DNA of 64,000 nt from an uncultured Chloroflexia bacterium. GTDB lineage: Bacteria; Chloroflexota; Limnocylindria; QHBO01. Where the stretch lies: the NCBI GenBank assembly GCA_963828485.1, contig CAWHEV010000010.1, positions 771,021 through 835,020 of the forward strand. The letters are read 5' to 3'. Positions 6,153 through 56,818 of the stretch are shown piece after piece. How positions within the stretch are numbered: position 1 is the stretch's first letter; every line of letters begins with the position of its first letter. The notes below the pieces were generated by a model that saw only the letters and a program-made list of their open reading frames with translations, was not told where the DNA came from and did not search any database. The position numbers and the translations under genes are program-made.

Positions 6153-6515
6153 ATGGTGAAGATCGGCAACGAAGCACCCCTCACCCCGGCTGTCCTGCAC
6201 ATCCTCCTTGCAGTCTCCACTGAGGAGCGGCACGGGTACGGGATCATGAAGCAGGTCGAGCGGGAGTCGCAGGGCAAGGTGAAGATGGGCCCTGGCACCC
6301 TGTACGGGTCGCTCGGCCGCATGATGACGGCCGGGCTGATCCGCGAGGGCGACAAGCGGGCTGATCCAGAGATGGACGACGAGCGTCGGATCTACTACGC
6401 GATCACCGGGCTCGGGCAGAACGCGCTCGAGGCCGAGCTCAACCGGTATCGCGAGGTCGTCGCCGTCGCCAGCGAGAAGCACATCACGCCGATCGCCATT
6501 GCCGATGGGATCTGA
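6153..6515 (+). CDS. PadR family transcriptional regulator
   Basis: LHILLAVSTEERHGYGIMKQVERESQGKVKMGPGTLYGSLGRMMTAGLI is a PadR wHTH signature. Confidence 0.85.
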   Translation: MVKIGNEAPLTPAVLHILLAVSTEERHGYGIMKQVERESQGKVKMGPGTLYGSLGRMMTAGLIREGDKRADPEMDDERRIYYAITGLGQNALEAELNRYREVVAVASEKHITPIAIADGI

Positions 6516-11354: not shown

Positions 11355-11992
11355 GCGATTGGCACGATCGTGCCGGCGATGGACCATCCGGCCCGCTCGT
11401 TCGGCCCGACGAACTCCAGGCTGCCAACCATGAGGGCGACACCGATCGGCACCCCGATCCAGCCGAGCCAGGCGGCGACAGCCTCGGCCGAAACGATGGA
11501 CACGGCGACCAGCAGCGTCCAGAGGCCGGTCAGCAGATACCCGAGATGCTCTCCGATGCCGACCCCCAGGAGCCGGTGCATGGTCGCGAAGACAACCTCG
11601 ATCGCTTGGCGTTCGGCGGCCGCCTCGGGTCCCTGCGCCGCGACATATCGCCTTGCGAGCTCGGGAACGGCGAACGGCCAACGTACGAGGCCGAGCGACT
11701 GGACGATCGCAGCCGCCACCCCGGTCACGATGCCAGTCACCGTCAGCGCCGAGTCGGCTCCCAGCGCCACGCCGACCAGAGCGGCCAGCGGGAGCATCGC
11801 GACTGCGCTCAGGAGCAATGCCTGCCACCGGAGCACCAATGGCGTCCCGCCCGCGGCAAATCGGCTCAGGATCTGCCCGGTCGGCTCACGCAGGATCGTC
11901 GGGTAGTCGAATGTCCGGCCGAGCTCGAAGAACGCGAGGTTGAATGCCACCGGGACAACGATCAGCAGGATGCCTGCGGCGGTTTCCGACAT
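11300..11992 (-). CDS. DUF4386-like integral membrane protein
   Basis: Six hydrophobic helices. LGRTFDYPTILREP motif. Coding GC3 bias. Confidence 0.6.
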   Translation of the reverse strand: MSETAAGILLIVVPVAFNLAFFELGRTFDYPTILREPTGQILSRFAAGGTPLVLRWQALLLSAVAMLPLAALVGVALGADSALTVTGIVTGVAAAIVQSLGLVRWPFAVPELARRYVAAQGPEAAAERQAIEVVFATMHRLLGVGIGEHLGYLLTGLWTLLVAVSIVSAEAVAAWLGWIGVPIGVALMVGSLEFVGPNERAGWSIAGTIVPIAYVAWSVWLIAIGVGLLL

Positions 11993-23816: not shown

Positions 23817-24692
23817 TCAGCCGCCGCGGAGCCCGTGGAGCTTCTCCTGGTCCGCGATGATGTCGATCTCGACGATTCGCCCGTTGGAGACGGTGAACGC
23901 GGCGACGAGTGACAGGGCCGGGAACCGGACCAGCAGACCGGCCTCGCCGTTGACGACCACCGGCTCGGCTCGCGGGGCAGTGCCGCGGAATCCGCCGGCC
24001 CCGCGAGCCACGGCTTCGGCACCCCGGAGCGGTGGACCGGAGAACGCTCGCGGTCCGTTCGGCCCGCCATCGACCCGGAGCACCACATCGGGGTCCAGCA
24101 CGCGCAGCAGGCCCTCGAAGTCGCCGTCGCGTGCCGCGGCGAGGAAGGCGTCCACCGCTCGGCGCTGAACGGCGAGATCCGCGTCCGGCTGCGGCGCCTC
24201 GGCCCGTACGCGCCGGCGCGCGCGGCTCGCGAGCTGACGCGCCGCGGCCGGCGACCGCTCCACCACCGGAGCGATCTCGTCGAACGGCACACCGAACACG
24301 TCGTGGAGGACGAATGCGAGCCGTTCCGCCGGCGTCAGCGACTCGAGGACCACCAGCAGCGCGAGGCCGACCGAGTCAGCCATGATCGCGTCGCGCTCCG
24401 GCTCGGCATCGGTCGAGGTGCGGACGATCGGCTCCGGGAGCCACGAGCCGGTCAGCTGCTCACGGCGCGACTTCCGTCGGCGCAGCGCGTCGAGGCAGAT
24501 TCGGCCGACCACGACGGTCAGCCAGCCACGCAGGTCATCGGCCCCGCCCGGAGGGCTGCGGTCGAGCCGCAGCCAGGCTTCCTGCACGGCATCGTCCGCC
24601 TCGGAGACCGACCCGAGCATCCGATACCCAACCGCGCGCAGGTGCCCGCGGTGTCGCTCGAACTCCTGGGCCAGCAGGTCCTGTCGCGTCAC
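23817..24692 (-). CDS. ECF41-group RNA polymerase sigma factor with fused SnoaL-like C-terminal regulatory domain
   Basis: Sigma2/sigma4 regions RAVGYRMLGSVSEADDAVQEAW..LESLTPAERLAFVLHDVFGVPFDEIA. Linker TGSWLPEP resembles YVGPWL. C-terminus VDGGPNG..DQEKL resembles DGGGK/NPDKV. 291 aa. Confidence 0.8.
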   Translation of the reverse strand: MTRQDLLAQEFERHRGHLRAVGYRMLGSVSEADDAVQEAWLRLDRSPPGGADDLRGWLTVVVGRICLDALRRRKSRREQLTGSWLPEPIVRTSTDAEPERDAIMADSVGLALLVVLESLTPAERLAFVLHDVFGVPFDEIAPVVERSPAAARQLASRARRRVRAEAPQPDADLAVQRRAVDAFLAAARDGDFEGLLRVLDPDVVLRVDGGPNGPRAFSGPPLRGAEAVARGAGGFRGTAPRAEPVVVNGEAGLLVRFPALSLVAAFTVSNGRIVEIDIIADQEKLHGLRGG

Positions 24693-27925: not shown

Positions 27926-28288
27926 GTGTCCAAGTACGAGAGCGTCGACGAGTACATGGCCCAGCTGCCGGACGACCGGCGGGCCGCCATGGAGCAGCTC
28001 CGTGCCACCATCCGGGCGGCGGCGCCCACCGCCACCGAGGCGATCTCCTACAACATGCCCGCCTTCCGGATGGATGACCGCTTCTTCGTCTCATACGAGG
28101 CGTTCAAGCGCCACTACAGCCTCTTCCCATGGACCGACGCGATGGTCGATGAGCTCGGGGATGCGATCGAGCCATACGCCGTCGGCAAGGGCACGCTGCG
28201 CTTTCCGGCGGATCAGCCGATTCCGGTCGATCTGGTGACGCGAATCATCGAGGTCCGGCTCCGGGAGTTTGACGTCACGGGAGGATGA
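27926..28288 (+). CDS. DUF1801 (YdhG-like) domain protein
   Basis: VSKYESVDEYMAQLPDDRRAAMEQLRATIRAAAPTATEAISYNMPAFRMDDRFFVSYEAFKRHYSLFPW. GTG start with an AGGAG SD 5 nt upstream. Confidence 0.7.
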   Translation: MSKYESVDEYMAQLPDDRRAAMEQLRATIRAAAPTATEAISYNMPAFRMDDRFFVSYEAFKRHYSLFPWTDAMVDELGDAIEPYAVGKGTLRFPADQPIPVDLVTRIIEVRLREFDVTGG

Positions 28289-29267
28289 TGACCTTGCCGC
28301 TGGCATGGCCGTCCTCGACCCAGCGCAGCGCGTCGACGACCTGGTCCAACGGAAAGCTCCGATCGATCACCGGCTTCAGCTTCCCAGCCGCGATCAGCTC
28401 CTTCAGCGCTTCGACGTCGGGTCGATGCATCGGCTTCCACCACAGCATCAGTCCGCTCCACTTGTCGCCGAACCGCGAGATCACCACGCTGCCGCCGAGA
28501 GACGCCAGGATGCTGGCACTGTCGCCGCCCAGCGTGAGGTACACGCCGCTCGGCTTCAGGGCACGGCGGACGGAGCGGATCGGATGGTGCGAGTCCACGG
28601 CCATGATCCAGTCGTAGCGGGCCTCGCCCTTCGTGTAGTCGACCGCCTCGTAATTGATCACGTGATCGGCGCCGAGCGATCGCACCAGGTCCAGCTTGTC
28701 GCCGCTGGCCACCCCGGTCACCTCGGCGCCCATGGCCTTCGCGATCTGCACGGCGAACGGACCGACGTTGCCCGACGCGCCGTCGATCAGCACCTTGTCG
28801 CCGGCCTTGATGGTCCGACCGCGGCGCATGCGAAGGCCCTGGAGCGCGAGGACCGCCGAGTGCGGCAGCGTGGCGGCCTCCTCGAACGACATGCCCGTCG
28901 GAATCGGCTCGAATGCCTTCTCCCGCGCACAGACGTACTCGGCGAACGCGCCGAACCGCCCCGCCGCGAACAGGTCTGTCATGACCTCGTCGCCTGGCTT
29001 GAAGCGGGTCGCGCCGGGACCGACCGCCTCGACCACTCCGGCCGCGTCGATGCCGACCTCGGGGTTCCTTGGCGCGCGCACCCCCATGAACAGCCGCACG
29101 AAGCCGGGCTTCGGCTTCAGGCCGTCGAGGTCGGCGCGGTTCACCGACGCGGCACGCACCCGCACCAGCACCTGGCCCTCAGCCGGCTCGGGTCGTTCGA
29201 CAGTTCGGACCTGGACGACCTCGGGAGGGCCGTACCGATCCGTCCGTGCCGCCCTCATGGTGCTCAC
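28275..29267 (-). CDS. zinc-type/MDR-family NAD(P)-dependent alcohol dehydrogenase / quinone oxidoreductase
   Basis: MRAARTDRYGPPEVVQVRTVERPEP..GDKVLIDGASGNVGPFAVQIAKAMGAEVTGVAS. Confidence 0.85.
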   Translation of the reverse strand: MSTMRAARTDRYGPPEVVQVRTVERPEPAEGQVLVRVRAASVNRADLDGLKPKPGFVRLFMGVRAPRNPEVGIDAAGVVEAVGPGATRFKPGDEVMTDLFAAGRFGAFAEYVCAREKAFEPIPTGMSFEEAATLPHSAVLALQGLRMRRGRTIKAGDKVLIDGASGNVGPFAVQIAKAMGAEVTGVASGDKLDLVRSLGADHVINYEAVDYTKGEARYDWIMAVDSHHPIRSVRRALKPSGVYLTLGGDSASILASLGGSVVISRFGDKWSGLMLWWKPMHRPDVEALKELIAAGKLKPVIDRSFPLDQVVDALRWVEDGHASGKVIILP

Positions 29268-29507
29268 GACGACACCGTCCCATCCGCCCGCATGCAGGTC
29301 AAGGCTGGGCCGCGCAACTCGACGTTTTGGACTCGGCCTTCACGGGGTGACAGCTATGGAGGGTCGGTGCGTCCGAGCGGTCAAATTCGATGCGTGACGG
29401 TCATCCGGTGGAGATTCGGGCGCTTCGCGCGGCGATTCGGCCGATAAACGGTCACGCCATGAACGTCCGGACCATTCGCGGCACGCCTGCGCCCGCTTGA
29501 GCCCACA

Positions 29508-43690: not shown

Positions 43691-44173
43691 TCAGTCGCTG
43701 CCGGTCCGAGGCTCGAGCACGACGACGGCGGTTTCGGACGGACGCCGGCTGGCGTAGCCCTCGACATCGTCGCCATGCTCTTGCCACCGTGCCCAGAGTC
43801 GTTCTCGCTCCTCGCCGACGGCGGCGCGCCCGCGGACCGGCAGCGAACGATCCGGCAGCTCGAGCGTCGCCTCGGGGTGGGCCTGCAGGTTGAGCCACCA
43901 CGCGGGCTCGGGTGCTGCCCAGCCGTTCATCGCGAGCGTGATGAGGTTCGGACCGTCCTCGTAGTAGCCGAGGATCGCGGTCCGCGTCCGTCCCGAGCGT
44001 CGGCCGGTCGTGTGCAGGCGCATCGTCCCCCACTTTCCGGGCTTCGCCGGCCACAGGCCGAAACGGCCCGGGGTGAGCCGGTAGATCGACCGGTGGACGA
44101 CCCACGCGGAGCGAACGAACCAGCGGGGAGGGACGCGCGGGGCATGCTCGGAAGCCACTTGGATCTCCTTCAT
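43691..44173 (-). CDS. deazaflavin (F420)-dependent nitroreductase-family protein (DDN-like)
   Basis: MKEIQ..RLHTTGRRSGRTRTAILGYYEDGPNLITLAMNGWAAPEPAWWLNLQAHPEATLEL. ATGA-coupled to the upstream HAAS-protein stop. Confidence 0.75.
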   Translation of the reverse strand: MKEIQVASEHAPRVPPRWFVRSAWVVHRSIYRLTPGRFGLWPAKPGKWGTMRLHTTGRRSGRTRTAILGYYEDGPNLITLAMNGWAAPEPAWWLNLQAHPEATLELPDRSLPVRGRAAVGEERERLWARWQEHGDDVEGYASRRPSETAVVVLEPRTGSD

Positions 44174-45180
44174 CGTGCTGCCTGGCCGGGCTCGCCCAGG
44201 GCGGCCGCGCCGGCGTTGGCACGGCGCGCTCTGCGGAAGCCATCGTAGATCTCCCACCCGGTAACCATGGCGGTCCCGGCGGCCACCCCAAGCATCACCA
44301 AGCCGTCGCCCTCGGCCAGCGGCGGCCACCCGAGCGCGTCGGCGAATGCCGGGTTGATCAGGGTCCCGGTCAGCGCCAGGTAGATGACCGGGATCGAAAA
44401 CCCGAGCTGGAGCAGCGCGAAGACGATGGCGAACGGGATCGTCCATCGGCCGACCAGGAAGATCACGACCTGCAGCCCGGCCAGCAGGATCAGGAAACCG
44501 ATCAGCACCGGCATCCAGAAGCTCCAGATCTCGGGGTTGAAGAGCGGGATGACATCGCCGGCCGCATCGGTGAACCAGGCGGCGCCGGTGAGGAACAGGA
44601 TGCCGCCGATGGTGAAGAGCGTGGTGACGAGCTCGCCGACCAGCTCGCCCGCGGTGATCCGCCCTGTCGGCAGTTCCGGCAGCTGATCCACCGTCCACCG
44701 GTCGGCAGCCTTGGTGAGCTCATCCCGTGCTTCCTTCGCGGCATCGACTCGCTCCACGAGGGCGAACGTCATCGTCACCCAGAAGAAGATGTGCAGGCCC
44801 ACCGTCCAGGCGCCCGCGATCCCCGCGACGATCGCGCCGAACCAGGCCTCGCCCTCGGAGACCTGGACCACAACCTGGATCACGCCGACGATCGGCAGGA
44901 CGATGCTGAGAAGCAGTACCAGGAGCTGCCGGTACTGGACGAAGAGGTCGGGACCGATCAGGTAGAGCGGACGCCCGGTGATTCCGGCTGCCAGCCGGGT
45001 CGGGTCACCGAGACCTTCGAGGACGGCCTTCTCCGCATCGGCCTGGTCCTCACCGGCACTGGTGCGGTCCTCGATCGCGTCGGCAATCGAGGAGCGGAGC
45101 TCGCGCTCCACATCGGTGCGCTTGGCTTCCGGGATACCTCGCAGTGCAGCGGCGAGGTATCGCTCGGTGAGCGGGGTCAT
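44170..45180 (-). CDS. PadR-associated HAAS/DUF1700-type membrane protein
   Basis: MTPLTERYLAAALRGIPEAKRTDVERELRSSIADAIEDR..AEKAVLEGLGDPTRLAAG, then about 6 TM. Overlaps the padR stop (ATGA). Confidence 0.75.
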   Translation of the reverse strand: MTPLTERYLAAALRGIPEAKRTDVERELRSSIADAIEDRTSAGEDQADAEKAVLEGLGDPTRLAAGITGRPLYLIGPDLFVQYRQLLVLLLSIVLPIVGVIQVVVQVSEGEAWFGAIVAGIAGAWTVGLHIFFWVTMTFALVERVDAAKEARDELTKAADRWTVDQLPELPTGRITAGELVGELVTTLFTIGGILFLTGAAWFTDAAGDVIPLFNPEIWSFWMPVLIGFLILLAGLQVVIFLVGRWTIPFAIVFALLQLGFSIPVIYLALTGTLINPAFADALGWPPLAEGDGLVMLGVAAGTAMVTGWEIYDGFRRARRANAGAAALGEPGQAAR

Positions 45181-45518
45181 CGGTCGGGTCCTCCATTCAG
45201 GGCGTGCAGCGACGCCGTCAGATCGGTCATGTCGGTCATCAGTCGGGCCGCAAGGTCTGTGCCGCTCGGGCTGGTCCGGTAGAACTTCCGCGGTCGCGTG
45301 TCGTCCGTGTTCCACTCGCTCGTGAGGAGCCCGCGCTCCTCGAGCCGCCGCAGCAACGGGTAGATCGTGTTCGCGTCGCTCGGGATGCCCGCGGAGCCGA
45401 GGCGCTTCAGCAGCGCGTACCCGTACTCCGGGGCCCGCAGCGCGAGGAGGCACGCCAGCACCACGGTGCCGCGGCGCAGCTCCTGCCTGTGGGTCCCCAG
45501 CAGCTCGTCATCTACCAT
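45177..45518 (-). CDS. PadR family transcriptional regulator
   Basis: LRRGTVVLACLLALRAPEYGYALLKRLGSAGIPSDANTIYPLLRRLEERGLL. Confidence 0.85.
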   Translation of the reverse strand: MVDDELLGTHRQELRRGTVVLACLLALRAPEYGYALLKRLGSAGIPSDANTIYPLLRRLEERGLLTSEWNTDDTRPRKFYRTSPSGTDLAARLMTDMTDLTASLHALNGGPDR

Positions 45519-45529
45519 GTGCGGCACAT

Positions 45530-49126: not shown

Positions 49127-50152
49127 TTAGCCCGCGGTCACACCTGCCTCTTCGATGATCGGCCGCCAGAGCTCGATCTGCGACTCCAGCTGCTCGGTGT
49201 GCGCCGCCGGGGTCGCGCGATCCTCCGGTACGGGCGCCGTCCCGAGCTCGCCGAGCCGCGTAACGACGGTCTCGTCCTGGAGCGCGACCAGGAGCGCCGC
49301 ATTGAGCGCATCGACGATCTCCTGCGGCGTCTCAGCTGGCACGTACAGGCCATGCCAGACGCTCACCTGGAGATCGGTCAGGCCGACCTCCTCGGTCGTG
49401 GGGACGTCCGGCAGGGACTCGACACGCTCCGGCGTCGTGACGGCGTAGGCCTTCACATCGCCGGCGAGGATCGGCTCGGACGTGTTCGTGGTCTGGTCGC
49501 ACATGAAGTCGACCTGGTCGCCGAGGAGGTCGTCCATGGCCGGACCGGTCCCGTCGTACGGAACCTCGGTCAGGTCGAGCCCGGTGGCCGTCTCGAACAG
49601 CAGGCCGCACAGCTGCGACGCGGCGCCGATGCCGGCGTTCGCGTACGTCACCGTGTCGAGGTTGTCTCCGACGTAGGCGATCAGCTCCTCCATCGTGTTC
49701 GGCTCGAAGTTCGGGCTGCCGATGATGGTCATCGGCACCTCCGTCACCAGGCCGATCGTCGCGAAATCGGTGAGTGGGTCGTACGAAAGCTCGGGGTACA
49801 GCGTCGGCGCGGTCGACATGCCGATGTGGTGCATGAGCACGGTGTAGCCGTCCGGCTCGGCGTTGGCGACCTGGTCCGCTGCCACGGTCCCACCGGCGCC
49901 CTCGACGTTCTGGACCACGATCTCGACGCCGAGCTCTGCCGCCATCGGCTCAGCGATGAGCCTCGTGACGGTGTCCGTTGGCCCGCCGGCCGCGAAGGGC
50001 ACCACGACAGTGATGTCGCTCTCGGGGTAGCTGCCCGCATCCCCGCCGCTGGCCCCATCGCCTCCCTGGCAGGCAGCCAGGAGCAGGGCAAGGGCCGCCA
50101 GCGATGCGGCGATCCGGCCGCCCACGGCGTGGGCGGCGCGTGCGTCGTGCAT
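49127..50152 (-). CDS. tctC: tripartite tricarboxylate transporter substrate-binding lipoprotein TctC (Bug family)
   Basis: Lipobox LLLAAC. YPESDITVVVPFAAGGPTDTVTRL..NVEGAGGTVAADQV. GGAGGAAG SD before ATG 50152. Confidence 0.8.
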   Translation of the reverse strand: MHDARAAHAVGGRIAASLAALALLLAACQGGDGASGGDAGSYPESDITVVVPFAAGGPTDTVTRLIAEPMAAELGVEIVVQNVEGAGGTVAADQVANAEPDGYTVLMHHIGMSTAPTLYPELSYDPLTDFATIGLVTEVPMTIIGSPNFEPNTMEELIAYVGDNLDTVTYANAGIGAASQLCGLLFETATGLDLTEVPYDGTGPAMDDLLGDQVDFMCDQTTNTSEPILAGDVKAYAVTTPERVESLPDVPTTEEVGLTDLQVSVWHGLYVPAETPQEIVDALNAALLVALQDETVVTRLGELGTAPVPEDRATPAAHTEQLESQIELWRPIIEEAGVTAG

Positions 50153-50290
50153 GGTGTCTTCCTCCAGTTGTCGACACGAGGCTCGGGCGCCCTGCAACCT
50201 AGCAGCCCGCGTGCCGCGCTGGAGTGGTCCACTTCGCGGCCCTCGCCTGTTCATCCTCGGAAGGTGGCCTTCGGCAAGGTCCGGGCGATT

Positions 50291-50440
50291 TCTTCGCGAG
50301 GTGACCGTTACGGGCCGAGACAGCTAGCGAACCGTCTGTCTCTTCACCACGTGACCGTTTTGGACCGATGCACCAATCGAATCGTCCGAGTGTTCACCGG
50401 GTGAACGTCACGGCGCGGAATTGACGGTTGGGGGCGCGGA
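50291..50440 (+). repeat. approximately 2.5 copies of a ~50-bp imperfect tandem repeat in the tctC-upstream / VOC-divergent intergenic region
   Basis: tcttcgcgagGTGACCGTTacGGgCCGAga.. / tcttcaccacGTGACCGTTttGGaCCGAtg.. / tgttcaccggGTGAACGTCacGGcgcgg. Copies 1 and 2 are 35/50 identical. Exact 50-bp phasing of the GTGAMCGT cores. Confidence 0.5.
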
Positions 50441-50536
50441 CTGCTCATAGCCTTCACCTGATGAAGATCCGGGCCGGTGGCGAGCCACACAGGTTCTTGA
50501 CCAACCGTGGCACGAACTCGGACTACCCTCTCCGTC

Positions 50537-50950
50537 ATGAACTACCGAATCGAGGCCATCACCCTTCCCGTCAGCGATGTCGATCGCGCCAAGGCGTTCT
50601 ACGAACAGGCCGGCTGGAATCTCGACGTCGACACCGAGCCGACTCCTGGCATGCGCGTCGTGCAGCTGACGCCGCCCGGATCCGACTGCTCGATCACCTT
50701 CGGCATCGGCATGCCGCAGTCGGAGCCCGGGTCGTACCGCAACACGTACCTGGTCGTCGCTGACATCGAACCGGCCCATGCTGAGCTCGTCGAGCGCGGC
50801 ATCCCGATCAGCGAGATCTTCCACTTCGGCGCCGAGGGCCAGATGTCAGGCCCGGATCCGAACCGCGGAGACTACGGCTCGTACGCGACCTTCGAGGATC
50901 CTGACGGCAACACCTGGCTTCTCCAGGAAGTTCCGAGTCGCGCCGCCTGA
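50537..50950 (+). CDS. VOC (glyoxalase) family protein
   Basis: MNYRIEAITLPVSDVDRAKAFYEQAGWNLDVD..DPDGNTWLLQE. Confidence 0.8.
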   Translation: MNYRIEAITLPVSDVDRAKAFYEQAGWNLDVDTEPTPGMRVVQLTPPGSDCSITFGIGMPQSEPGSYRNTYLVVADIEPAHAELVERGIPISEIFHFGAEGQMSGPDPNRGDYGSYATFEDPDGNTWLLQEVPSRAA

Positions 50951-53297: not shown

Positions 53298-53717
53298 ATG
53301 GAGGCGTTCGAGCGCTTCCACGAACGCCTCTTTGCCCTGAACACTCCCGACGTCCTGGATGTCAACCTGACGCTTGCCCAGCTGAAGGCGACCTACGTGA
53401 TCGCGTTCGCGGGCCCCCTCACCATGGGGGCGCTCTCGGAGCGCCTCGGCACGGCGTTGTCGACGACCAGCGAGGCCGTCGACCGCCTGGTCCGCCGAGG
53501 CTTCCTCGAGCGGCGCGACGACCCGTCGGATCGGCGACAGGTGCTCGTGGAGGCCACGGCCGCCGCGCGCGAGCAGATCGAGCACATGTCCGAGCTCAAC
53601 CGCACGCGCCACCGCCAGATGCTCGAACGGCTCGATCCCGCGGACGTCACGACAGTTGAACGCGCCATCAGGGTCATGACCGCCGCGATGGCCGACCTGA
53701 ACGAGGAGACCCGATGA
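53298..53717 (+). CDS. MarR family transcriptional regulator
   Basis: VNLTLAQLKATYVIAFAGPLTMGALSERLGTALSTTSEAVDRLVRRGFLERRDDPSDRRQVLV. Confidence 0.85.
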   Translation: MEAFERFHERLFALNTPDVLDVNLTLAQLKATYVIAFAGPLTMGALSERLGTALSTTSEAVDRLVRRGFLERRDDPSDRRQVLVEATAAAREQIEHMSELNRTRHRQMLERLDPADVTTVERAIRVMTAAMADLNEETR

Positions 53718-56700
53718 CCTGGCTCACCCGCGCAGCCGTCAACAGGCGGAGCGTCACCATCCTGATCGCCGCGGGGCTCTTCCTCGGTGGCCTGCTCTCG
53801 TGGGGGAGCCTCAAGCAGGAGCTGCTGCCGCCGATCTCGTTCCCGATCGCGACGGTCATCGCTCCCTATCCAGGGGCCGCCGCCGAGGAGGTCGTCGAGG
53901 ACGTCGTCATCCCCATTGAGAACGCGGTGCAGGCGCTCGAGGGGGTCGACGCGGTGAACTCCACCTCCGCGAACAGCATCGGCTTCGTCATCGCCCAGTT
54001 CGACTACGGAGTCGACGTGGACGAGGCCGTCGCCGACCTGGAGCAGGCGGTAGCCGGACTGACACTGCCCGATGGCGTCGATCCGGTCGTTACGCCCTTC
54101 GATTTCAACCAGTCGCCGGTTGTCATCGCCGCGATCTCCTCGCCGACCGCTTCGCTCACCGAGCTCGGCGCCATCGCGTCCGACGAGATCCTGCCCGAGC
54201 TGCTCGCGATCCCCGGCGTCGCCACCGCCGAGGTCACCGGTGGGCTGACCGAGCAGGTCGCCATCACCCTCGATCCGGTGGCCGTCGCGCAGTACGGCAT
54301 CAATCCGCAACAGCTCCAGGCCGCTCTGGCGACCGCCAACATCACCGTGCCGGCCGGTGAGCTGACGACCGACGAGGGTGCGCTGCCGGTCACGGTGCGG
54401 GCCCAGGTCGAGTCGGTCGAGGCGCTGAACGATCTCGTGGTCGGTGCCGACCCGTCGAGCGGCGCCCCCGTGCCCGTGACCCTTGGACAGGTCGCGGAGA
54501 TCGAGGTCGTCGAGGTCGCCAGCTCGGGCTACGGGCGAATCAACGGCAGCGAGGCGCTCGGCCTGACGGTCACCAAGACCCAGACGGCGAACACGGTCGA
54601 CGTCTCCGAGGCGGTCGACGAGGTCCTCGACGATATCGTCGAGGACAGCACCGCGGATCTCGAGATCACCCGGGTGTCCGACCAGTCGGACTTCATCATC
54701 GAGTCGCGGGATGGGCTGCTCCGCGAGGGCGGGCTCGGCGCGATCTTCGCGGTGCTGACGATCTTCTTCTTCCTGTTCAGCCTGCGATCCACGTTCGTCG
54801 CCGCTCTCAGCATCCCCCTCTCGCTGCTGGTGGCGCTCATCACCATGCAGGTCACCGGCATCACGATCAACATCATGACGCTCGGTGGCCTTGCGGTGGC
54901 CGTTGGCCGCGTCGTGGACGACTCGATCGTCGTCCTCGAGAACATCTACCGGCATCGGGCTATGGGCGACAACCGGCGCGACGCCGCGATCCGCGGGGCA
55001 TCCGAGGTCTCGGGCGCGATCACCTGGAGCACGCTCACGACGGTGGCCGTGTTCCTGCCGCTCGGCCTCGCCGGCGGCTTCGTGAGCCAGTTCTTCCTAC
55101 CCTTCGCGCTGACCGTCACCTTCGCGCTCCTCGCGTCCCTCGTCGTCGCCCTCACGCTGGTTCCTGTGCTCGGCTACCTCTGGGTCGGCAAGCCCAAGGG
55201 CGACATCGACGCCTCCGGCGAGCCACGACGCTCGATCTGGGTCCGGCTCTACGACCCAACGATCCGCTGGGTGGTCAGCAGGCGCTGGCATGCCGCCGCC
55301 GTCATCGGGATCTCGTTCGCCCTCTTCGTCGGCTCGCTGTTCCTCGTCCCGCTGATCCCGGTCCAGTTCATCAACTCGGGGGGCGAGAACCTCCTGAGGG
55401 CCAGCCTCGCTCCCCCGCCCGGCCTGAGCTCCGAGGCCGTCCTCGAGCGGGTGATCGAGGCTGAGGAGATTCTCCTCGCCGACGATGAGGTCCAGCTCGT
55501 CCAATCGACCGTGCCGCCCGAGGGCGACACCGGCTTTGGCACGCTCATCGCGGCCACGTCGGGTCAACCGGCCAACTCGGCTCAGATGTTCATCCGCCTC
55601 GTCCCGGAGGCGAACCTCGAGGCGGCCACGATTCGGCTGGACGAGGCGCTCAGCGTGCTCGACACCGACGGCTGGGATGCCGTGATTCAGCAGACAACCG
55701 GCCCCGGTGCCGGGACGGCGACCTCGCTCGTGGTCAGCGGCCCCGACGGCGACAGCGTCGAGGAGGCTGCCCTCATCATCGTGGACGCGCTCGAACCGAT
55801 GGACGGCCTCTCGAACGTCACCAGCGATCTCGTCGCCGAGGCGAGACAGGTCATCGTCCTGGTCGACCCGACCAGGGCCGCGGCCGTCGGCGTGACCGCC
55901 CCGCAGGTCGCGGGAGTCGTCGGTGGCGTGCTGTCGCCGACCGAGGTCGGGACCATCGCTCCAACCGACGCGGATGAGCCGCTCGCCATGATCATCAGCT
56001 TCCCGGCCGAGACGGCTACGTCGGTCGACGACCTGAGCGCCCTGCCGGTCGGGCCGGGCGTCACGGTCGGCGACGTCGCCGAGGTGGAGGAGGTCGAGGC
56101 GCGACCCACGATCGCTCGGGTCGACGGCGCGCCGTCGGTGACCATCACGGCCGACATCACCGACGAGAACACGGGCGCCGTGTCGACCGCCATCGCCGCC
56201 GAAGTCGCGCGGCTCGATGATGCGGGCGAGCTTCCCGCCGGGACGGACGTCCAGGTCGGCGGTGTGAGCGAGCAGCTGGCCGAGTCCTTCGGCGGGCTCT
56301 TTGCGGCCATGGGCATCGCGGTCATCCTCGTCTTCCTGATGCTCGTCCTGGCGTTCAACTCCCTGATCACGCCGTTCGTGATCCTCTTCAGCCTGCCCCT
56401 GGCGACCATCGGCGCCTTTCCCGCGCTTCTCATCACCGGACGCCCGATCGGCATCAGCGCCCTCATCGGCTTCCTGATGCTCATCGGCATCGTCGTGACG
56501 AACGCGATCGTGCTGCTCGACCTCGTCGAACGGCTCCGCAGCCAGGGCGTGCCGCTGCGTCAGGCGATCGTTCGCGGCGGCCACACCCGCGTGCGGCCGA
56601 TTCTCATGACCGCGATCGCCACGATCTTCGCCCTCATCCCGCTCGCCGCGGGCCTCAACGAGGGCTCCATCATCGCCGCCGAGCTCGGCACGGTCGTCGT

Positions 56701-56818
56701 CGGCGGCCTGCTCAGCTCGACGTTCCTGACCCTCATCGTCGTCCCTGCCGCATACCTGCTCATCGAGGCCTGGCGGAAGCGGACGCTGGAACCCGAGTCC
56801 GAAGGGAGCGCGCAATGA
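53714..56818 (+). CDS. RND-superfamily efflux transporter permease (AcrB/HAE-type), no adjacent membrane-fusion protein
   Basis: 1034 aa, 12 TM with two large loops. MTWLTRAAVNRRSVTILIAAGLFLGGLLSWGSLKQELLP..VDDSIVVLENIYRH. ATGA overlap with marR. Confidence 0.85.
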   Translation: MTWLTRAAVNRRSVTILIAAGLFLGGLLSWGSLKQELLPPISFPIATVIAPYPGAAAEEVVEDVVIPIENAVQALEGVDAVNSTSANSIGFVIAQFDYGVDVDEAVADLEQAVAGLTLPDGVDPVVTPFDFNQSPVVIAAISSPTASLTELGAIASDEILPELLAIPGVATAEVTGGLTEQVAITLDPVAVAQYGINPQQLQAALATANITVPAGELTTDEGALPVTVRAQVESVEALNDLVVGADPSSGAPVPVTLGQVAEIEVVEVASSGYGRINGSEALGLTVTKTQTANTVDVSEAVDEVLDDIVEDSTADLEITRVSDQSDFIIESRDGLLREGGLGAIFAVLTIFFFLFSLRSTFVAALSIPLSLLVALITMQVTGITINIMTLGGLAVAVGRVVDDSIVVLENIYRHRAMGDNRRDAAIRGASEVSGAITWSTLTTVAVFLPLGLAGGFVSQFFLPFALTVTFALLASLVVALTLVPVLGYLWVGKPKGDIDASGEPRRSIWVRLYDPTIRWVVSRRWHAAAVIGISFALFVGSLFLVPLIPVQFINSGGENLLRASLAPPPGLSSEAVLERVIEAEEILLADDEVQLVQSTVPPEGDTGFGTLIAATSGQPANSAQMFIRLVPEANLEAATIRLDEALSVLDTDGWDAVIQQTTGPGAGTATSLVVSGPDGDSVEEAALIIVDALEPMDGLSNVTSDLVAEARQVIVLVDPTRAAAVGVTAPQVAGVVGGVLSPTEVGTIAPTDADEPLAMIISFPAETATSVDDLSALPVGPGVTVGDVAEVEEVEARPTIARVDGAPSVTITADITDENTGAVSTAIAAEVARLDDAGELPAGTDVQVGGVSEQLAESFGGLFAAMGIAVILVFLMLVLAFNSLITPFVILFSLPLATIGAFPALLITGRPIGISALIGFLMLIGIVVTNAIVLLDLVERLRSQGVPLRQAIVRGGHTRVRPILMTAIATIFALIPLAAGLNEGSIIAAELGTVVVGGLLSSTFLTLIVVPAAYLLIEAWRKRTLEPESEGSAQ

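Follow-up and report, generated by a model that had tools for sequence, protein, structure and literature searches.

A low-copy dispersed module of dyad units in intergenic spacers of Candidatus Limnocylindria, possibly phased sites for an unlinked DNA-binding protein

The 64-kb window (the whole stretch of DNA analyzed here) contains a divergent gene pair whose spacer holds regularly spaced repeats. The question raised by this locus is whether the repeats control the adjacent tctCBA operon or belong to something else. The first gene of that operon, tctC (49127-50152, minus strand; Pfam TctC), is followed by tctB and tctA, and its ATG at 50152 is preceded by GGAGGAAG. On the other side is a VOC/glyoxalase gene of the glyoxalase/bleomycin-resistance-like type, called VOC1 here (50537-50950, plus strand; ATG at 50537). 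From ATG to ATG, the spacer measures 384 bp (50153-50536), one less than the 385 bp given in the preliminary description. That description saw about 2.5 copies of a 50-bp unit and proposed either binding sites for an unlinked regulator of the tct genes or a small minisatellite. The repeats are real, but they were undercounted: there are four sites, and the fourth is inverted.

Array 1 spans positions 50281-50477, with units D, C, and B on the plus strand, unit A inverted, and core centers at 50299, 50349, 50399, and 50459. Unit s1 (D; 50281-50314, plus strand), an extra distal unit, has the core TTCGCGAGGTGAC at 50293-50305 and the extension CGTTACGG. Unit s2 (C; 50331-50364, plus strand) has the core TTCACCACGTGAC at 50343-50355 and the extension CGTTTTGG. 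Unit s3 (B; 50381-50414, plus strand) has the core TTCACCGGGTGAA at 50393-50405 and the extension CGTCACGG, and contains the perfect dyad GTTCAC-CGG-GTGAAC, which is the palindrome previously reported for copy 3. Unit s4 (A; 50444-50477, minus strand; core at 50453-50465) reads TCTTCATCAGGTGAAGGCTATGAG on the minus strand and is centered 78 bp upstream of the VOC1 ATG. Its orientation, opposite to that of the other three, is judged by the asymmetric extension (GTGAn-CGTTAC-like).

The previously described phasing of the cores is also present, as GTGACCGTT occurs at 50301 and 50351 and GTGAACGTC at 50401, in steps of exactly 50 bp. Array 1 also contains GTTCACCGGGTGAAC at 50392-50406 and CTTCACCTGATGAAG at 50452-50466. 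A repeat search of the spacer returned 50-nt units at 50291-50340 and 50341-50390 with 70% identity, reproducing the earlier value for copies 1 and 2. The same search returned a four-copy, 22-nt family with starts at 50293, 50343, 50393, and 50453 (spacing 50, 50, and 60). Likeness over the full 50 nt is limited to s1 and s2, and the motif of array 1 as a whole is about 22-35 nt long with the core TTCAC-N3-GTGAA.

The clustering in array 1 far exceeds what chance would give. Of the four occurrences of TTCAC-N3-GTGAA in the 64 kb (one mismatch allowed), three are in array 1. The degenerate 18-mer YYCAYNNNRTGAVNGYTW, derived from the units, has four matches in the window against 0.02 expected, all of them in array 1 or in the second array described below, and GTGAMCGTY has nine matches against 2.4 expected. 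Tandem Repeats Finder made no call on array 1, even at a score of 30; the array is therefore too diverged to be a classical tandem repeat. In a second sample, whose VOC protein is identical, the spacer is of equal length (384 bp), and an exact look-up of the TctC protein gave no match. A sigma-70 promoter scan of the spacer returned no sites. By eye, TTGACC boxes lie ahead of VOC1 and of the gene beside the second array; since the box in array 1 is 21 nt from any TAnnnT, we did not assign promoters there.

The motif recurs within the window. We built a weight matrix only from the four array-1 sites and used 200 Markov sequences as the null. In the rest of the window, the two best hits are at 29391 (score 22.6) and 29337 (score 21.0), compared to a null maximum of 20.6, and a hit at 29449 ranks fourth. 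All three lie within a single 240-bp spacer, and a cluster of three sites was seen in 0 of the 200 nulls. The matrix scan found no single sites of the unit motif in other promoters of the window. This spacer is upstream of a Zn-ADH/quinone-oxidoreductase-like gene (ADH; 28275-29258, minus strand) and downstream of the stop codon of an MFS gene (29508), 21 kb from array 1.

Array 2 (29327-29475) has three units, with A on the plus strand, B and C inverted, and core centers at 29345, 29406, and 29457 (spacing 61/51). Unit t1 (A; 29327-29360, plus strand), with the sequence CCTTCACGGGGTGACAGCTATGG, is centered 87 bp upstream of the ADH ATG at 29258. Units t2 (B; 29391-29424, minus strand) and t3 (C; 29442-29475, minus strand) read TCTCCACCGGATGACCGTCACGC and CGTTCATGGCGTGACCGTTTATCG, respectively, on the minus strand. 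The reverse complement of array 1 is colinear with array 2 over about 142 nt with a score of 90, compared to 24 ± 3.7 (maximum 38) for shuffles. Units s4, s3, and s2 correspond to t1, t2, and t3, with center spacings of 60/50 and 61/51. The two arrays are about 66% identical and are paralogues within the window. In both, unit A is 78-87 bp upstream of a start codon, and VOC1 and ADH both read away from their arrays; the start codons of these two genes were compared with those of orthologues.

Two further arrays were found in related Limnocylindria MAGs. The first (L203/L213, on a MAG contig of 1.4 Mb; E = 1e-29) has a spacing of 74/51 and cores of the form CTCAC-N3-GTGAG, and is located between the 3' end of a methyltransferase gene and a small AraC-type gene, which is followed by glyoxalase and RibD_C genes. 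The second (L223; E = 4e-10) has a spacing of 62/50 and the left half-site TTCCCAC, and follows an AlkZ-DUF2255 pair and precedes an unknown gene. The neighbors of the arrays in these MAGs are small detoxification-type genes. A solitary, well-matching unit is present in L207, just past an APH gene. Two weak profile matches were not counted: a pair of GTGAATTCGGACG units 51 nt apart in L001 (11860-12000; E = 0.06) and a match in L043 (E = 0.12), both of which may be diverged relatives. All arrays lie in spacers that include at least one gene start. Their orientation is inconstant, as the A end is toward the gene in both window arrays and the C end is toward the gene in L203 and L223. The arrays share no regulator gene as a constant neighbor.

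The AraC-type gene next to the L213 array encodes a 150-residue protein with a DNA-binding domain only, which is 85-92% conserved across many Limnocylindria (L213, 12249-13823; L215-L225). It is always the first gene in a cluster with glyoxalase and RibD_C genes, and an array precedes the L213 copy only. In L001, the 50 nt at 11786-11835, beside the weak unit-like repeats and upstream of a 187-residue gene, are AT-rich, which is unusual for that genome, and contain the nested palindromes GTAGGATACCTATGCGCATGAGTATACGTATAGCCCTACGTATG; this stretch looks operator-like.

The arrays are absent at orthologous promoters. Eight loci with VOC1 orthologues (L205-L212) at 88-90% amino acid identity have no array, and neither do two loci with ADH orthologues (L201, at 91% identity, and L204). 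At the VOC1 and ADH loci, homology to the window extends no farther than the start codon. At such a distance, a conserved regulator usually still has its operators. Outside these genomes, blastn searches of plasmids and phages returned no match to the arrays, and a scan of viral contigs with the unit pattern gave three isolated matches, of which two are on low-GC contigs and one is at the end of a 783-residue ORF; these matches are uninformative. A metagenome scan for two dyads 30-60 bp apart produced, among the matches listed, none resembling the spacer; those listed are unrelated coding 21-nt repeats and CRISPR-like arrays. A TTCACC-NN-GTGA dyad with a 21-nt period is present on several unrelated high-GC metagenome contigs (L095, L098, L120, L151, L183, and others), probably as heptad-type coding repeats unrelated to the arrays. 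A literature search on the motif found no description of it.

Next to these distributions stands the anatomy of the unit. Thirteen units aligned in site orientation give the consensus ...CGAnCCGTCCGnATn-TTCAC-CGG-GTGAn-CGTTAnG..., in which columns C23, G31, and A32 are the same in every unit and T30 almost always is. The unit is about 35 nt long, roughly GTCCG-rATT-YYCAC-NNN-GTGAS-CGTTAC, with a dyad TCAC-N3-GTGA whose arms are only 4-5 bp and with asymmetric flanks. The window has seven units at about 60-66% identity, and arrays from different genomes are 45-54% identical. In an alignment of the four arrays, mean pairwise identity falls from 66% in the cores to 53% in the flanking motif and 44% in the linkers, a gradient partly inflated by anchoring the alignment on the cores. 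The left half-site is TCTTCAC, TTCTCAC, or TTCCCAC, depending on the genome, and uniform within each genome; such concerted change fits co-evolution with a genome-specific binding protein.

The architecture is conserved as well. Unit A is inverted relative to B and C (and D where present) and is 60-74 bp from B in all four arrays, while B and C are 50-51 bp apart in the four arrays and C and D likewise where D is present. Given the expected indel rate, the constant B-C step is compatible both with a constraint on spacing and with simple common descent. The earlier proposal that a 50-bp period places the sites on one face of the DNA is only approximately right: with 10.5 bp per turn, 50 bp makes 4.76 turns, and steps of 50-51 bp leave neighboring sites about 50-85 degrees apart rather than on a single face.

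With slightly more doubt than belief, we read the arrays as copies of a low-copy module, dispersed among intergenic spacers, whose units would be phased binding sites for an unlinked DNA-binding protein; the module family is found in Candidatus Limnocylindria. The sequences show the motif, its phasing, its copies within the window and in other genomes, its absence from orthologous promoters, and the lack of an RNA signal; from these we infer that a protein binds, which protein it might be, and that neighboring genes are affected. Each module consists of three or four units, A being inverted relative to B, C, and D, and would most likely act at the DNA level, its units serving as phased sites for an unlinked, sequence-specific protein. 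The putative binder would probably be a dimer that recognizes the dyad, and its cooperative occupancy of the sites would influence the adjacent promoters. A DNA-level motif that is recognized by a protein and under selection is suggested by the dyad with its asymmetric flanks, the greater conservation of cores than linkers, the concerted half-site, and the location in promoter-containing spacers. The short dyad with an asymmetric extension does have the look of a protein site, so this part of the original regulator proposal stands. No linked candidate for the binder emerged; the regulators encoded in the window are two PadR proteins, one MarR protein, an ECF sigma factor, a MocR-type GntR protein, and a BTAD protein. 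If the units are phased binding sites, they would represent a hitherto unseen regulon, or a nucleoprotein architecture, of a soil Chloroflexota class that is abundant but uncultured, and an example of a regulatory module that spreads between promoters as a unit.

Operator arrays of the Lrp/AsnC, DeoR, IclR, and TetR (EthR) types have dyad sites at fixed center distances and support cooperative binding, looping, or wrapping, usually with a period of 20-33 bp. The arrays described here likewise have several similar dyad sites at fixed spacing, upstream of or between promoters, in spacers with gene starts and with cores better conserved than linkers. However, their period of about 50 bp is longer, their linkers are homologous between loci, and their sites are not kept at orthologous promoters. 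This absence from the orthologous promoters of tctC, VOC1, and ADH, together with the homologous linkers, argues against a classical operator. Since the linkers can be aligned, the arrays appear to have a copy-and-paste origin rather than to be independently evolved operators. Alignable linkers at unrelated loci, absence at orthologous promoters, and variable orientation together show that spread and loss involve the module as a whole. Also weighing against a binding platform are the inconstant orientation, the lack of a consistently adjacent regulator, and the lack of single sites in the other promoters of the window.

The main rival is that the arrays are a selfish or neutral dispersed repeat (REP/BIME, BOX, or MITE-like) with no regulatory role, which we regard as possible but somewhat doubtful. 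The arrays would then be a non-autonomous element, spreading and being lost in intergenic DNA, with inverted end units (A versus C or D) and internal tandem modules; a transposase or recombinase, rather than a regulator, would recognize the motif, and effects on neighboring genes would be incidental. The outermost units are inverted copies resembling terminal inverted repeats. Presence or absence differs at orthologous sites of sister species, linkers align between unrelated loci, gene orientation varies, and both solitary and arrayed units are found, all of which this explanation accommodates. It also accommodates genome-specific motif variants, as in REP families, the extra 50-nt unit of array 1, which fits tandem expansion, and the inversion of one unit, as in REPIN doublets (PMC3337134). 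However, copies within one genome are only about 66% identical, unlike active REPIN or MITE populations, and the copy number is low in the roughly 0.5 Mb of Limnocylindria DNA examined, at about 16 units, with most loci having none. Hairpin potential is not significant, and the dyad lacks covariation. Inspection of arrays 1, 2, L203, and L223 revealed no consistent target-site duplication or TG/CA termini; array 1 is flanked only by an imperfect AAGRTCCGGGC pair (AAGGTCCGGGC/AAGATCCGGGC) that overlaps the unit motif itself. No transposase, RAYT, or Y1 transposase was present among the ORFs scanned in the window, which covers 64 kb of a contig of at least 973 kb. Lastly, the higher conservation of cores than of linkers argues for continuing selection.

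Comparison with known repeats of this kind gives a similarly divided picture. REP/BIME sequences and REPINs of Enterobacteria and Pseudomonas are short extragenic dyad motifs that occur singly, as inverted pairs, or in regularly spaced clusters, and their sequences are species-specific and differ in presence or absence between relatives (PMC3116915, PMC3337134). They share with the arrays the dyad, the single, inverted, and clustered units, the genome-specific sequence, and the patchy presence. In contrast, the stems in the arrays are 4-5 bp without significant hairpin energy, which does not amount to a stable hairpin; the copies are few and about 60-66% identical, no RAYT is found in the 64 kb, and the arrays are mostly located in promoter-containing spacers. 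The pneumococcal BOX element (boxA-boxB(n)-boxC) is modular, with an internal module of about 45-50 bp that is tandemly repeated in variable number, and the extra s1 unit of array 1 parallels this variable module. BOX elements are abundant (over 100 copies) and have stable secondary structures, whereas the arrays show neither property and have no sequence similarity to BOX. The ends of Tn7 (TnsB sites) and Mu (MuA sites) have about three sites of about 22 bp over about 150 bp, with the two ends inverted. The arrays have a comparable number, size, and extent of sites, but without target-site duplication, TG...CA termini, or a nearby transposase, and an internal dyad is atypical for transposase sites. 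If the arrays are only REP/BIME-like, they would be the first such family noted in the lineage and a possible strain marker, and otherwise ordinary.

A more specific and rather unlikely form of the binding-site reading is that the arrays are portable cis-regulatory cassettes, each a ready-made platform on which one lineage-specific protein would bind three or four phased sites, copied between promoters. The target promoters would belong to small genes for detoxification or genotoxin resistance (VOC/bleomycin-resistance-like, quinone oxidoreductase-AlkZ, and AraC-VOC-RibD_C), a proposal that we hold just as speculatively. If true, a stress regulon would have been rewired by moving whole site modules rather than by point evolution of operators.

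Control of tctCBA by an unlinked TctD-like regulator, with the repeats as its operator or activator sites, is improbable. Position speaks for it, since array 1 is in the divergent tctC/VOC1 spacer, 90-260 bp upstream of a conserved tctC -10-like box. As previously noted, no tctDE genes accompany the operon: none was found among the window ORFs scanned, which also have no response-regulator or histidine-kinase domains. However, the motif is absent upstream of tctC in 40 of the 40 best orthologous loci, some of which encode a TctC of 89-91% identity, and the module also occurs at loci without any tct genes. The closest TctC relatives (77-91% identity) are in MAGs labeled Chloroflexia or Candidatus Limnocylindria, and in the 876 kb that surround 80 tctC loci, a weight-matrix scan found neither a cluster nor an array. 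Nucleotide homology of tctCBA to its relatives stops at about 50215-50222 of the window, about 70 bp from the ATG and short of the repeats.

Inside this homologous stretch, the tctC upstream alignment has an invariant, extended -10-like TGCTAGGYT (50196-50204, minus strand), which in the orthologues is within about 75 bp of the tctC start codon. A CCCGAGC box (50181-50187, minus strand) follows about 9-10 nt downstream. Both elements are kept in seven Limnocylindria tctC loci and both are outside the repeats. Thus, tctC has a conserved promoter region of its own, and the conserved control region of tct does not include the repeats. The two elements probably represent the actual promoter and leader of tctC, and perhaps the site at which its true regulator would act. 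The comparative data have thus already largely refuted the TctD-like model, and the tct link in the original regulator proposal falls with it; array 1 is more likely to belong to the VOC1 side than to tctCBA. Whichever of the other readings is correct, annotating the repeats as a control region of tctCBA would be a mistake. The motif family is new but of a known general kind (species-specific intergenic repeats or phased site arrays), and the main value of the analysis is that the tct-specific reading is corrected and a testable motif is defined in an uncultured lineage.

A structured RNA, either a 5' leader of the riboswitch type or an sRNA with repeated hairpins, is very unlikely. The short inverted repeat in each unit, the location of arrays upstream of genes, and the moderate conservation of the entire module beyond the cores would suit it. 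However, fold energies do not differ from those of shuffles (z = -0.63, -0.28, and -1.8), and the 5-bp dyad shows no covariation, with 80.0% of cells paired compared to 79.6% in shuffles. Mismatches are uncompensated, as in the T-to-C change at core position 2 in L223. Predicted folds differ between the arrays, and gene orientation differs between loci. Searches of three regions against Rfam 15 gave nothing credible: for the region of array 1, the only hits up to E = 10 are three eukaryotic miRNA models (E = 0.24-6.4), which fall outside the repeats and far under their gathering scores, and the other two regions gave nothing up to E = 1.

A functionless local tandem duplication (the minisatellite of the preliminary description) or chance similarity would explain the 70% identity of s1 and s2 over 50 nt, but is scarcely credible and is refuted by the dispersed homologous copies of the same architecture elsewhere in the window and in other genomes, with the missing Tandem Repeats Finder call, the equal spacer length in the second sample, and the four matches against 0.02 expected also opposing it.

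Several named elements were also considered. The half-site TTCAC/GTGAA is common to the units and to the ParB site parS, which is TGTTTCAC-GTGAAACA with no spacer between its half-sites; the units instead have a 3-bp spacer, asymmetric flanks, 50-bp arraying, and locations in promoter spacers of accessory genes. Along with parS, we rejected the DnaA box, LexA boxes, the Rex operator, the BldD box, and the PHO box on spacing or sequence. A CRISPR array was rejected on three features: the repeats are about 65% alike, one is inverted, and the "spacers" are homologous between arrays. We also dropped a reading as ECF-type promoters (GnTCAC-N16-CGG), as only about five of eight unit sets point at a gene.

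Additional features of the window were observed in passing. The VOC1 ATG (50537) has no Shine-Dalgarno sequence upstream (ccctctccgtcATG), and the alignment of orthologues begins exactly at this ATG. Translation of VOC1 may use a leaderless or unconventional start. Within tctC, near its 5' end, is an 18-nt tandem repeat at 50030-50070 (Tandem Repeats Finder, 2.3 copies, consensus GCTGGCCCCATCCCCGCC), which corresponds to a Gly/Asp/Ala linker of low complexity that follows the signal or lipoprotein region.

Positions 6000-58000 are densely filled with small genes of accessory or detoxification type. At least eight VOC/glyoxalase genes (8056, 8791, 35047, 50537, 51135, 52099, 57254, and others) are found there, as are four of the RibD_C type (12273, 13733, 25762, and 46521), together with SRPBCC/AHSA1, SnoaL, DinB, alpha/beta-hydrolase, BBE-type FAD oxidase, and F420-reductase-like genes. 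Gene order differs between related MAGs, which gives this region the appearance of a variable "detox island." At 53298-56818, a MarR-family gene has a stop/start overlap with the gene for a 1,034-residue RND (AcrB-like) transporter, and no membrane-fusion or outer-membrane partner was noted among the adjacent ORFs scanned. A PadR gene (45177-45527) is paired with the gene for a HAAS-domain protein (44170-45453), both on the minus strand, and a second PadR gene is at 6153-6515. In L208 and L209, the PadR-HAAS pair is divergent from the VOC1 orthologue. The ECF sigma factor (23817-24692, minus strand) has a fused C-terminal SnoaL-like domain (ECF41/SigJ-like), and its counterpart in a related MAG (L214, 14310-15212) is near an ADH-AlkZ-DUF6194 cluster.
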